From Eledone cirrhosa (taxonomy: Eukaryota): a stretch of 64,000 nt of DNA. Location of the stretch: assembly GCA_964016885.1 (NCBI GenBank), contig OZ024745.1:62372001-62436000 (forward strand). The letters are read 5' to 3'. A model generated the notes under the pieces. It ran no database searches. It saw only the letters and a list, made by a program, of their open reading frames with translations, and had not been told where the DNA came from. Below, in pieces: positions 35,478 through 61,270 of the stretch; positions within the stretch are counted from its first letter, which is position 1, and every line of letters starts with the position of its first letter. The translations under genes were made by a program, and so were the position numbers.

Positions 35478-36017
35478 ATAAAAATTTCGTTTCTGAATTT
35501 GTTTAGCAAGATTCTTTATCTGAAATAGTGTGTTGAAACCGATATTGTTATACTTTGGGAGGGTCATGTTGCCAATAAGAAACACACGCACCAGTTGCTT
35601 TCACTTCAATTTATTATAATAAATTTATAAATTTAGGAATTTATAAATTTATAATTTATAAATTTCTGGTTGGTTGGTTGGTTGGTTCCACAACCAGATA
35701 GTTGTTTATATATTGTCAAAGTTCTTTCGTCACACACAGAAACAAAATGGCGTAGGACAGAACAAAGGAGAGACACAAAAACAAAGAAAAGAATCCCCAA
35801 TTTCCAGTGACTGAAGAGGTCACAGAATGTGTGACGAAAGAACTTTGACAATATATAAACAACTATCTGGTTGTGGAACCAACCAACCAACCAGAAATTT
35901 ATAAATTATAAAATCCTAAATTCCTAAATTTATAAATTTATTATAATAAATTGAAGTGAAAGCAACTGGTGTGTGTGTTTCTTATTGGAAACATGACCCT
36001 CCCAAAGTATAACAATA
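35478..36017. mobile_element. Palindromic non-coding PLE terminal-repeat insertion with HHR
   Basis: 35542-35737 is the reverse complement of 35828-36017. HHR on + at 35808-35848: CTGAAGA-G-GTCACA-gaatg-TGTGAC-GAAAGAACTT. Confidence 0.8.
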
Positions 36018-37204
36018 TATACAAAAACATATATATATATATATGTGTGTGCGTGTGTGCTTGTAACTTCATATATATAAATAAATATACTCACATAATT
36101 ACGTAAATAACTATAACGCGCGCACACACATACCTACATGTAAAAACACATATGTTCGCGGATTTACGTCAACCAAAACAAAAAGTACATATATACACAC
36201 ACCCTACATACGTACGAACCCGCATACTCACACAGACGCAAAACTCACGTTTACACATAACCAAATGCACATGTACCAGTATTTATAAAATATACGCCAT
36301 ATCATATACAACCAAATATACGTAGGAGAAAGTATACGTACTTTCACAAAACATACATATATATATATATATGTTCAAAAAAAGCTGTCGAAACGGTCGG
36401 AGGTCAGCCATCAGGATCCTGACTCTTTTCCTATATATATATATATATATATATATATATATATATATATATATATACATATATACTATAGATTATGTCC
36501 ATAGAATCATTTGATAAGATATATACTCTATTTCCTCTCCCAATTAGCATAATCAACCACATAATAAACCAATTAAACCAGGCTATAAGATTAAAAGGCA
36601 CATATGAAGAAATAATAGATAAATAAACGACAGCCATCTATTCGCGATCAACAGTTATAGAATATTTACCCAACATTTAAATAGCACGTGGAAATCGATT
36701 AAATATATCGTCAACCATACACAATTAGGTATAAAATTAAAGTTAGAAGAAAAAATACATATACACATACCAGGATTACGTTACTAACTTTTAGGGTTTC
36801 GTTCGCTTTCGGAAATATCCTTTCCTTACTACACTTCCTTGGTTATATATATATTAGATATATACACATATTCATTTATTATGGCTGAATAGTGAGTCTT
36901 GTTATTTTTTAATAACACACACGCGTATACAAGTGTGTGTATGTGTGTGTGTGTGTTGTTGGACTCCTGATCTACTTCTCGGTGTCATATTCTCATATTC
37001 CATCTACCGTGACATCAACCTAAAAATATAAAATGTTTGTAGCGATTATATATGAATATATAGGAAGATACACACTAACACACCAACACACCAACACACA
37101 CACACACACACACACACACACACACACACACACACACACACACACACACACACACACACACACACACACACACACATATATATATATATATATATTTATA
37201 TATA

Positions 37205-37396
37205 ACGAAAGAAGTGTGGTAAGGAACCAGATGGACCATAACGCACCAGAGTACTCAATACTTAGAGTAGTAGAGTGGGTAATAGGAAAAAGTTTAACCC
37301 CGACGGCAGAGCTCAAGCCGTTGCAACGGCTATTTCTGCATTGAAATAGACGTCGAAACGGCTTGAGCTCTGCCGTCGGGGTTTACATTTTTCCTA
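37205..37396. mobile_element. Short fold-back insertion of the Neptune-like terminal repeat in (TA)n
   Basis: Hairpin of ~55-bp arms with apex at 37337-37342. The same structure occurs at 45737-45928 and 62584-62777. Confidence 0.85.
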
Positions 37397-57025: not shown

Positions 57026-57300
57026 ATTGTTATACTTTGGGAGGGTCATGTTGTCAATAAGAAACACACACATCAGTTGATTTCACTTCAATTTATTATA
57101 ATAAATTTATAAATTTAGGAATTTATAAATTTCCGGTTGGTTGGTTGGTTCCACAACCAGATGGTTGTTTATATATTGTCAAAGTTCTTTCGTCACACAT
57201 TCTGTGACCTCTTCAGTGATTGGGGAGTCTTTTCTTTGTTTTTGTGCCTCTCCTTTGTTCTGTCCTACGCCATCTTGTTAAAGAATTCAGAAACGAAATA
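57026..57300 (-). mobile_element. Second insertion of the 35478 family, with HHR at 57179-57219 (-)
   Basis: Colinear with the reverse complement of 35745-36017. TCA-CTGAAGA-G-GTCACA..TGTGAC-GAAAGAACTT-TGA. Confidence 0.8.
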
Positions 57301-58564
57301 TATATATATGTATATATATATATATATATGTTCCTGATGTTTAATTTGTTATTTAACATTTGTCTTATCTATTATTCGTAAATCGTGTTTGAAAATTATC
57401 ATTCATTTAGCTACTAAAATCTATTGACTACAACACCATTTTAATTGCTATCACATCACCTGCCAAGCAAGTCAAGCCACGTCCACAAGATTTAATACAC
57501 AGCGTGGACTTCAAATACACTAATGCGATTTTACTTCTTATTGGTTCATACATTTTCTCTAAATATTTATATAGTCACGTATGTACTCTACGCCGACCGA
57601 TCACAAACGCGTAACTATGTATGTTAATCAATGATTGCCGTCCAGAATGTTAGCGAGGAAAACCGATCACACGCTTTAAAGATCATTAATTTACGAAGTG
57701 TAAATATACCGCCTTTACTTCATGATTTACTGTTTAAATTTTATCGGTCATTTATGTATACCCATTAACAAGCACATAAACACACGCATATCTTTGCACG
57801 TATATATATATATATATATATATATATATAAGGCATTTTAGACCACACACACACAAACACACACACACAAACACACACACACATACACACACACACACGC
57901 ACACACACACACACACATATATATATATATATATATATATATATAGTAATAACAATAAATGTGAAGACTAAAATCCGAAGAGGGCTCGATAAGGATAAAT
58001 ATATAAGAACCCTAGAGCAAATATTTAAGGGTGAAAGCAGCGATTCTTTGCTTAAACTTTAATCTGTTATACTAATATATATATATATATATATATATAT
58101 ATATATATATATATATATATAAACCAGTAATATAATACATATTATTGCAAATGTATACCACTGCCAGTAAACATGTTTTTTTTAAATATATACCAAAAGG
58201 ATGAGTTTAAAAGCAGAGACTGAAATAAAGTCTAAAATTATTAAAGAATCACGAAATCCAACAAAAACAATTTATTTTGAAATAAATCTGTTTAAAAATG
58301 GATCAAAATGATTATCAAAGGTACTTCTAAATATTCCCTTGTGCAGAAGGTAATATTTATTTATAGGATTGGGATTTGCTCTAAATATACTGTAAGAAAT
58401 AATTATAATTGTTATTTTATAATTATACTCCAGACTTATATTAACAAATACATTTGAAATCAAATCGTTCCTGATTGATAAGATTAAGATCCACCAATAT
58501 CATGAAATATATTGAGGTTTATATATATATATATATATATATATATATATAGATATATATATGT

Positions 58565-61270
58565 AAATATCTTTAAGTCGTTTGGAAGCCTCGACAATGC
58601 AAATGGGTAAATCTCCGGGTAACAAGATCCGGTGGTGGAGAGAGAGATGTAAGTGGGTGTACGTTGAGATGCGTGGTGTGTATAAGATGTGTAGAAGAAT
58701 GAAGGAAAGAGTATAAAGGATAACATAAAAATAACAACACGAGAGAGAGTTAGCTTGGGAGAGATTTAATTGTCCCCATATATTTCGGATTCACATCCAT
58801 CAACTGGGGTTTTTTTCCGGGGTGGGGGAAAGGTTGTCTGTTTGAAAGGTCCGAAACGCGTCCTCCGCTGTTTGTTGTTTTGAATATCTGAGGTATTCAG
58901 CAGAGCGCGCGTGCGCGTGGTATGGGGTCGGTCGGGCAGAGGTCAGCGGCCGAATGAGGGAGTGGGGTGGCGCTAGCTGTCAATCCATTCTCTGCCTGTT
59001 TGTTAAATGTTACTGTGTGTGTGTGTGCGTGTGTTGTTGTCTCGCTTGAGTGTGTGTGTGCGTGTGTTGATGCCTTGTTACTCTGTATTGGCAGTGTAGT
59101 ATGTTCGTATGGTGGAATACTACTGTGTGTGTGTGCGTGTGCGCGTGTAGTTGTCTCGTTTGTGTGTGTGTGTGCGTGTGTTGCTGCATCGTTTGTTAAC
59201 TTAAACCAGCCATCTCATTTCGCTTCTCTCGGATCGATTGTTTATTTGCGGTTGCTGGCGTTTGATAAAAAGCGCTTCCTTGATACGTAACGTGCCGACG
59301 TTTCTTTCAGTCGCTAGAATTGTGAAAATGGGCCTTCCGTCTTTGTTTCCGTATGTGTCTATGTGTTTCCGGAAAGACGAGTCCCTGGTTTTAGTGTCTT
59401 CCTTGATCGGGATGTGCAAAGTTCGGATTGTGCTACCTATGTAGTATTGGTTGCACCTGTCACATTCTATCTTATACACGACGTATGTGCGTAGGCAACA
59501 GTTCGCATGGCATATCGGGCAGTCTCTGAGGGAGCATGCGTCAGTAGATTTCCCGGGTTTCCTGGAGAGGCATCTTCGCAGGAACGGGCCCGAGTGGGCC
59601 CTCCCTCCGTATATCCTTGCGGATAACGTTGGTGGTATTCTCGCCCAGGTGTGGCATTTTAAGGAAGCACTTGCCTTGGGTGCCTCTCTGTCTCTTGTGT
59701 CTGGTGTCTCCTATTCTGTCTGTGAGCGAGGTAGGGTACCCGTTCGTCTCCAGCACCTCGAGGAATCGCTTGGTATGTGTGACACCACTCGCGGGATCGC
59801 TGCATCTGTTTTTGATTCGCGCGATCTCGTTCGTGATGTATCCTCTTTTGGCACTATTAGGGAGGGCGGACTGGTAGTGAACGAACAGGTCCCTGCAGGC
59901 TGCCTTTCGGTAGAAGTTGCAGTGGATCCTTCCCTGTTCCGTGGTGTTAATTCGGAAGTCGAGGAGGGCAAGTGACCCGTCTTCGTTGGGGTGTTCAACA
60001 CTGAAGTCAATGTTCTCGTCCGTGTTGTTGAACGTCTCATAGACAGAATAGGAGACACCAGACACAAGAGACAGAGAGGTACCCAAGGCAAGTGCTTCCT
60101 TAAAATGCCACACCTGGGCGAGAATACCACCAACGCTATCCGCAAGGCTATACGGAGGGAGGGCCTCGACATCCACCTGGCCCACTCGGGCCCCTCCCTG
60201 CGAAGATGCCTCTCGAGGAAACCCGGGAAATCTACTGACGCATGCTCTCTCAGAGACTGCCCGATACGCCATGCGAACTGTTGCCTACGCACATACGTCG
60301 TGTATAAGATAGAATGTGACAGGTGCAACCAATACTACATAGGTAGCACAATCCGCCCTTTGCATATCCGGATCAAGGAACACACTAAAACCAGGGCCTC
60401 GTATTTCTGGAAACACATAGACAAATGCGGAAACAAAGATGGAAGGCCCATTGTCACAATTCTAGCGACTGAAAGAAACGTCGGCACGTTACGTATCAAG
60501 GCAGCGCTTTTTATCAAACGTCTGCAACCGCAAATAAACAATCGATCCGAGAGAAGCGAAATGAGATGGCTGGTTTAAGTTAACAAACGATGCAGCAACA
60601 CACGCACACACACACACAAACGAGACAACTACACACGCACACGCACACACACACAGTAGCATTCCACCATACGAACATACTATACTGCCAATACAGAGGA
60701 ACAAGGCAACAACACACGCACACACACACACACACACACTCAAGCGAGACAACAACACACGCACACACACACACACACAGTAACATTTAACAAACAGGCA
60801 GAGAATGGACTGACAGCTAGCGCCACCCCACTCCCTCATTCGGCCGCTGACCTCTGCCCGACCGACACCAGTTCACGCGCACGCGCGATCTGCTGAATAC
60901 CTCAGATATTCAAAACAACAATCAGCGGAGGACGCGTTTCGCACCTTTCCGACAGACAACCTTTCCCCCACCCCGGAAAAAACCCACAGTTGATGGATGT
61001 GAATCCGAAATATATAGGGACAATTAAATCTCTCCCAAGGTAACTCTCTCTCGTGTTGTTATTTTTATTTTATCCTTTATACTCTTTCCTTCATTCTTCT
61101 ACATGTCTTATACACACCACGCATCTCAACGTACACCCACTTACATCTCTCTCTCCACCACCGGATATTGTGACCTGGAGATTTACCCATTTCATTGTCG
61201 AGGCTTCCAAAAGACTTAAAAATATTTACTTATTATTCCACAATGCTTCAAGCAAACTTCAATACTCTCT
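58565..61270. mobile_element. Tail-out inverted pair of a Poseidon-like PLE
   Basis: Left arm (-) at 58565-60040 and right arm (+) at ~60040-61270. VVYKIECDRCNQYYIGSTIR..RIKEH GIY-YIG motif in both arms. (TA)n flanks. Confidence 0.92.

Follow-up and report, generated by a model that had tools for sequence, protein, structure and literature searches.

The stretch of Eledone cirrhosa DNA analysed here (GenBank assembly GCA_964016885.1, 3.0 Gb in size; contig OZ024745.1, positions 62,372,001 to 62,436,000; 64,000 nucleotides, below called the window) contains inverted, head-to-head insertions of Penelope-like elements (PLEs). We think it probable that the two arms of such an insertion, which end at two different sites inside the element, are made by twin priming on one RNA. 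The short end is here called S, the long or tail end L, and the element sequence between the two the tail. Across the genome, 63 of the 66 head-to-head insertions resolved in four families pair a long end with a shorter one, and in none of the 66 is the same site of the same unit used twice.

Pairing of long and short ends

The four families are two coding families of the window, A (51421-57017) and B (58563-61270), a Neptune-type family (the 5531 locus) and a family with a 522-bp unit. Measured against a natural unit of family A from locus L089, the ends of this family cluster at S (unit position 4079) and at two long sites, L1 (4122) and L2 (4133-36). Each of the 28 inverted insertions has a single long end, which is paired with S in 24 of them and with a shorter site other than S in four. 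Part of this set was found with a query that contained the tail; a query with the body only, run separately, gave 33 loci, 16 of them inverted and 17 uninverted, and again all 16 inverted loci were long plus shorter. The uninverted copies end at S in 14 cases, at L in two and elsewhere in one, so that an independent choice of ends would give mostly S/S insertions. Family B gave L+S in 15 of 15 inverted insertions (13 uninverted copies end at S in seven cases and at L in six), and the 522-bp family gave long plus short in 11 of 11. The 12 resolved Neptune-type insertions comprise nine L+S, two S plus internal and one S/S, and in the last of these (L256) one arm runs through a whole additional unit, across a tandem.

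Duplicates of one locus were removed (L185/L190, L197/L206, L271/272, L275/276, L280/281 and L006/L056), and L274, L289, L213/L258, L221/L259 and L226 were left out as unresolved, together with other Neptune-type loci whose second end was absent or beyond the fetched span and hits without fetched DNA. L198, with its central 330 bp unchecked, and L218, with a degraded short end, were counted. L280 and L281 (C2:324.75 Mb) are one inverted insertion with an identical joint that occurs twice, 8 kb apart and in opposite orientation, as a later duplication.

An earlier note on this DNA, made from the window alone, had described the pairing of long with short ends as strict. The counts confirm that end combinations are far from random, and the pairing holds as a near-rule; strictness is lost to the short-plus-internal pairs and to the one S/S insertion across a tandem. 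The rule is better worded as the use of two different sites.

A family-blind survey covered 1.264 Mb, made up of the window, eight 100-kb blocks picked blind and 40 fetched 10-kb stretches. It found 122 inverted structures between (TA)n tracts, of which 111 are asymmetric (binomial p = 3e-22 against 50:50), the figure for the blind blocks alone being 52 of 57 (p = 3e-11), although the copies of one family are not independent. The long end lies on the left in 55 asymmetric insertions and on the right in 56. Among the 11 symmetric structures, one is a clean short/short insertion, weighed below; that at C7 block 98378 is long/long until an additional piece of pseudo-long terminal repeat (pLTR) ending at S is read, and the others, judged by eye, involve internal TA runs, low complexity, or terminal-repeat or long interspersed nuclear element (LINE)-like elements. 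The density of inverted insertions is uneven, with 0-1 per 100 kb in four blocks (C1:150.0-150.1 Mb, C2:250.0-250.1, C3:120.0-120.1 and C4:100.0-100.1) and 12-15 in the other four (C5, C7, C9 and C13). A genome search with the body of the small hairpin family gave no matches, probably because common words were skipped, and this family was counted through the survey only.

The apparent long/long cases (L189/L253, L240/L254, C7 block 98378 and window 5094) all resolved on closer reading. L253 and L254 became long / tandem-then-short once more DNA was fetched. The window locus, which the earlier note had offered as a long/long exception at 5531-7355, is a chimera: its left arm extends to 5094, where it ends at the Neptune-type short site, and in its right arm a captured end of the small hairpin family, absent from the 28 other copies examined, supplies the long site at which the arm stops. 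A 3' end of the Hydra-type family is present in both arms of the Neptune-type body, and the left arm contains an 84-bp duplication and a small fold-back. The sequence of this chimera suggests template switching between families.

Other symmetric structures were also observed. L120:4660-5347 holds a symmetric pair of outward-facing, LINE-like 3' ends, which have (ATG)n tails and which we take to be RTE-like; L084:9026-9356, L091:7593-7962 and C5 block 7264-7377 are symmetric palindromic elements with related ends.

Position of the ends and templating of the arms

The long arm had been thought to begin at the RNA's 3' end. This is not borne out by tandem copies of family A, family B, the Neptune-type family and the 522-bp family, which continue past L into the next unit; to judge from the sequence of these copies, both S and L lie inside the element. 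In the three families for which the overlap is readable (A, B and the 522-bp family), L shares 2-4 nt with (TA)n. The short end was correctly placed at a TA microhomology, since it overlaps alternating TA by at least 3 nt in 64 of 102 survey insertions, compared to 13% elsewhere. Stray ends shift to other AT/TA sites or match non-TA bases of the target (unit positions 4104, 4072 and 3940; L255; L186). Where the target is not pure (TA)n, duplications of 13-22 bp can be seen (16 bp at L081, 13 at L186 and 15 at L193), with further cases in C7, C9, L091 and L103. In contigs of two other organisms the element likewise meets (TA)n at S, L1 and L2 (X7: 56961, 57015; X8: 57004).

In 24 non-tandem insertions of family A, the arm that reaches further 5' is the L arm in 12 and the S arm in 10, and the two are equal in two. 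Because the short arm reaches further in these 10, one arm cannot have arisen by fold-back copying of its partner. Each arm holds sequence that is missing from the other, by which we judge the arms to have been templated separately. They nevertheless appear to come from one template lineage, as only 10 of 438 informative sites are discordant (19 pairs), against 68.9 expected from age-matched insertions. Such sharing of a lineage fits a single RNA molecule without showing it. The differences that do exist between arms are for the most part private, and in the window insertion of family A, where the arms differ at 13 of 2124 sites, every one is; this argues against read artefacts.

The earlier suggestion that the two arms are joined centrally is upheld by their separate templating and by microhomology at the joints. 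Of 28 central joints, 12 have microhomology of at least 2 nt (2-5 nt long; 14.6% expected by chance, p = 3e-4), nine have additional bases and seven have 0-1 nt. In the small hairpin family the centre is different at every locus, and on this ground we reject transposition of the small palindromes as invariant units. Non-overlapping or stub products, similar to those of the L1 retrotransposon, are found at L116, L280, L277, L246 (a 14-nt stub) and window 57281-57300; a search of 26 uninverted copies of family A for short inverted stubs at their 5' ends found none.

Of 32 family representatives, 13 have a strict RCTC...GAGY stem that begins 6-14 nt past S (0.77 expected), and a looser pattern, for which the excess is weaker, is found in 19 of 32 (6.3 expected); the expectations come from mononucleotide shuffles, the patterns were chosen after seeing the tails, and some representatives may be related. 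Examples are window 45736-45815 (minus strand), L095:9506-9882 and L114:3740-4273. The stem variants are compensatory (ACUC/GAGU and GCUC/GAGC, with GUUC/GAAC under the looser pattern), and the stem was not found in the nine tails shorter than 63 nt. By analogy with the boundary helix of the telomerase template, this stem would set the short site.

One RNA, two RNAs and other routes

In the reading that we favour, a staggered double nick of an AT-rich target would leave two 3' overhangs, each of which would pair, through its terminal bases, with an AU/UA site that the RNA has next to a protein-bound tail structure. Both overhangs would serve as primers for reverse transcription of one RNA, at the two sites flanking the tail; where the arms overlap the trailing enzyme would displace a strand, and the two cDNA ends would anneal and be filled in. 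Two primers cannot occupy one site of one molecule, and S/S and L/L insertions would therefore not arise, except from an RNA with two tandem units. This reading predicts that same-site pairs are absent except across tandem units, and that L1-like non-overlapping products occur, both of which are seen. Its further signs are also present: the outer ends and the inversion joint show microhomology, and target duplication occurs. The earlier note had proposed that both nicked strands prime, one of them at the RNA 3' end; the first part agrees with the separately templated arms, the TA microhomology and the near-rule pairing, while the second is not borne out, the long start being internal.

We suggest more tentatively that the tail could be an RNA element to which protein binds, with a priming site on either side, such that one ribonucleoprotein would act on both target ends and one RNA with strand displacement over kilobases, in Neptune/Nematis-type, Hydra-type and non-coding families alike, the RCUC/GAGY stem setting the short site.

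Several observations weigh against twin priming on one RNA. The evidence does not separate one RNA from two RNAs of one source locus, and the concordance of the arms could come from, or be raised by, gene conversion. The arms overlap by up to 2.4 kb, demanding a long strand displacement that is unproven for these enzymes, and twin priming of L1 yields little arm overlap. Initiation has been reported at RNA that is non-homologous to the cut DNA, with the start site equal between strands (Frangieh et al., 2024, PMC11167929). The rule itself is broken by the clean short/short structure of the survey (C13 block 13052) and by the short/short-like locus at 43033-43150, which the earlier note did not list. 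In the 522-bp family, long arms stop at S in three of ten cases, an excess that is suggestive only. Of the 111 survey loci only 8 show a clear target duplication, and some of these are doubtful; few are seen because pure (TA)n hides them, and most targets are uninformative. Finally, the palindromes were read from assembled sequence only.

Two RNAs from one source locus might instead be bound by an asymmetric dimer, whose two subunits would be fixed on S and on L respectively, with both target ends priming. We consider this rather unlikely, though it has its attractions: kilobase overlaps would need no strand displacement, arm concordance is compatible with it if both RNAs come from one locus, and a dimer is predicted for the published in vitro system (PMC11167929). 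That published model is symmetric, however, and a dimer alone accounts neither for the S/S insertion across a tandem (L256) nor for the non-overlapping and stub products at L116, L246, L280 and L277. Active lineages of similar age should moreover give some mixed pairs, whereas only 10 of 438 sites differ.

It is improbable that both arms start at the long site and that the endonuclease trims one tail at resolution (PMC8557442). Trimming would leave a tail on one end only, as required, and the S sites are AT-rich like the target of the enzyme. However, uninverted copies of family A end at S in 14 of 17 cases, ends move to other AT/TA sites or match non-TA target bases, long stubs that end before S exist (L246 and window 57281-57300), and both sites act as start sites on linear RNA in vitro (PMC11167929).

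We give no more credence to fold-back of the cDNA, or to self-priming of an antisense RNA at the palindrome (PMC3846280), in which the second arm would be copied from the first. The symmetric or near-symmetric joints of L103, L022 and L120, the clustering of small-family joints in the hairpin, and a 15-nt fold-back at the 5' end of L098 would all agree with this route. A copied arm must lie within the first, yet 10 of 24 short arms of family A reach further 5' while lacking the tail, and the arms of L116 do not overlap. Fold-back is thereby contradicted as a general route, and may apply to a minority of insertions.

It is most improbable that the palindromes were created by assembly, or that a single fixed palindrome was copied whole: the insertions are known from the assembly only, but the window arms of family A differ at 13 of 2124 sites, all private, centres differ between loci, several insertions are flanked by target duplications, and the contigs of two other organisms carry the same S and long junctions.

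Families of the window and published systems

The ends in the window, read by self-comparison and directly, lie where the earlier note had put the short and long ends of six families. They also face outward into (TA)n, as it had said, at most loci; at 62584-62778 the short end enters (ATC)n. The insertions are as follows, with the strand where one applies.

51421..53795, minus strand: short (S) arm of family A, unit positions 1702-4079, 3' end outward into (TA)n
53797..57017, plus strand: long (L) arm of family A, unit positions 916-4136, with a 5'-truncated reverse transcriptase (RT) and GIY-YIG frame
56962..57017, plus strand: tail of family A, from S to the outer long end; other copies have a second long end at 57004
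35478..36021: sister family of A, inverted; left long end 35478, right short end 36017
57021..57300: sister family of A, second insertion; left short arm (57026) and right long end 57300
37196..37394: small hairpin family, long/short, 80-nt tail
45736..45927: small hairpin family, long/short, central joint unlike that of the 37196 copy
62584..62778: small hairpin family, short (into (ATC)n) / long
34778..34869, minus strand: small hairpin family, solitary long arm, truncated about 10 nt past S
43033..43150: small hairpin family, older variant with two short-like ends, the left end outside (TA)n; an exception
41147..42032: 522-bp family, short/long, 118-120-nt tail
47320..49343: 522-bp family, short/long, arms containing tandem units
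51119..51353: 51123 family, long/short, 92-nt tail
57945..58074: 51123 family, long/short
43937..44022: 51123 family, long/short
58563..61270: coding family B, short/long, 41-43-nt tail, CX4CxxC linker before GIY-YIG
5094..7355: composite locus with a Neptune-type body, left arm ending at the Neptune short site 5094

In family A, the young PLE of the window, the short end is at 51421 and the long end, at 57017, extends 57 nt further; the central joint has one additional base (53796), and the frame of the L arm has a stop at 54810-54812 and a frameshift near 55990. The sister family is represented elsewhere by L089:8289, whose endonuclease is 62% identical to that of A, and its long arm at 57281-57300 is a stub of about 20 nt that stops before S. 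Three further features were observed in the window: a direct tandem repeat at 22620-24063 (period about 584 bp, 97% identity), about 2.1 kb of degenerate (TA)n at 18458-20583, in which the detector picked up no insertion, and at 40067-40959 an element with terminal inverted repeats of about 100 bp between TA runs, whose ends resemble mariner-type repeats.

Families A and B contain remnants of RT and GIY-YIG domains, and show the features of canonical endonuclease-bearing PLEs, namely partial tandems forming pLTRs, an inverted 5'-truncated copy and a tail. In Pfam, RVT_1 is below the cut-off in family A (E = 6e-4), while in the relatives of family B (13940 and 28868) GIY-YIG and RVT_1 reach or exceed it. 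The Pfam library had no match for the 1057-aa frame of L089. In the natural units L089 and L253 the RT and GIY-YIG motifs can be read in order in a single frame. Look-alikes of families A and B in the Atlas are eukaryotic RT/HTH clusters, at 0.92. The frame at 53796-56428, which had been put forward as the protein for an in vitro test, lacks about 300 N-terminal codons of the unit and is therefore a poor choice. Its N-terminal part (window 53796-54040; L089 unit 640-1130) contains an asparagine-rich stretch that resembles the N-rich inserts of rotifer Penelopes (PMC3846280).

The clade labels also need revision. The Penelope/Poseidon clade has no CX2-5CxxC linker before GIY-YIG (PMC8557442). 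Family B had been called Poseidon-like, but its frame at 59201-59710 has a CX4CxxC linker, which Poseidon lacks, and by this motif it is Neptune/Nematis-like. Family A and the 5094-7355 family likewise have a CX2-5CxxC linker before GIY-YIG, as in either of the Neptune and Nematis clades. Longer copies of the small hairpin family (L111) and of the 51123 family (L096) contain remnants of a Hydra-type endonuclease, with no CCHH, with CxxC and CxH beside conserved E and N, and with (TA)n targeting. Both families are better labelled Hydra-type by these endonuclease remnants. Directly 5' of the short end, L111:4776-4885 forms a three-stem, hammerhead-like fold with a non-canonical core, within whose second stem the joints of the small palindromes cluster; Rfam gave no hammerhead match for L111:4760-4970. 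The 522-bp family is a tandem unit without coding capacity, and among 96 Rfam matches in window 34000-64000, the 522-bp family included, there was no hammerhead, only hairpin look-alikes below the gathering score.

The architecture itself, an inverted truncated copy with a tail on one end, is already published. A tail at one end of inverted insertions is figured for endonuclease-bearing PLEs (Craig et al., 2021, PMC8557442), and a tail at one of the inverted pLTRs was described together with the proposal of antisense self-priming (Arkhipova et al., 2013, PMC3846280). The earlier note gave inverted pLTRs and a 3' tail extension as known, and underrated the prior work on the one-sided tail, the two start sites and the extension of both strands. 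In print the tail of the canonical unit is optional, 30-40 nt long and uncounted, and is ascribed to resolution by the endonuclease or to self-priming of an antisense RNA; in the present counts it is near-obligatory in inverted insertions and from 35 to more than 160 nt long, and the arms were templated separately.

For Anolis Poseidon in vitro, two internal start sites flank the tail, both strands are cut and extended, and a dimer was modelled (PMC11167929). The present families share with it an AT-rich target and, in family B, a tail that overlaps the start of the reading frame, as it contains the in-frame start codon of the next unit. They differ in a 2-4 nt overlap between ends and target and in the exclusive pairing of the two sites, and the available text on Anolis Poseidon draws no connection between its two start sites and the pair of arms in a single insertion. 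With L1 twin priming they share microhomology at the ends and the inversion joint, and target duplication (Kojima, 2010, PMC2912911). In L1 both target ends prime on one RNA (PMC2912911), which here is a proposal, and priming uses the poly(A) and a variable internal site, whereas here the two sites are fixed 35-170 nt apart. As both are internal and this close together, the arms overlap and the product is a near-palindrome. The 522-bp family, a non-coding tandem with PLE-type ends, is also similar to non-long-terminal-repeat retrozymes, the tandem repeats of non-autonomous PLEs (10.64898/2026.07.22.740005), but has no Rfam hammerhead, and the available retrozyme text is silent on inverted long/short insertions. 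Our literature search found no published count of PLE end pairs and no use of twin priming as an explanation for PLEs, although more may be stated in Arkhipova 2006, in Evgen'ev and Arkhipova 2005, and in supplements.

The origin of the tandem and inverted structures of PLEs has been named an open question (PMC8557442). To this the analysis adds pair counts from several clades, observations that speak against two explanations in print, and a one-RNA model, as well as the lineage concordance of the arms, the microhomology at the centre and the short end, the 13-22 bp duplications and the RCUC/GAGY stem. The counts turn a known "optional" feature into a near-rule, which the existing in vitro system (PMC11167929) is well suited to test. 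For annotation, small palindromes at 12-15 per 100 kb in four of the eight blocks can be mistaken for miniature inverted-repeat transposable elements or microRNA hairpins. If the tail does act as a protein-binding element between two priming sites, a single rule would cover both the inverted pLTRs and the one-sided tail of PLEs, and would replace the proposals of endonuclease resolution and antisense self-priming.

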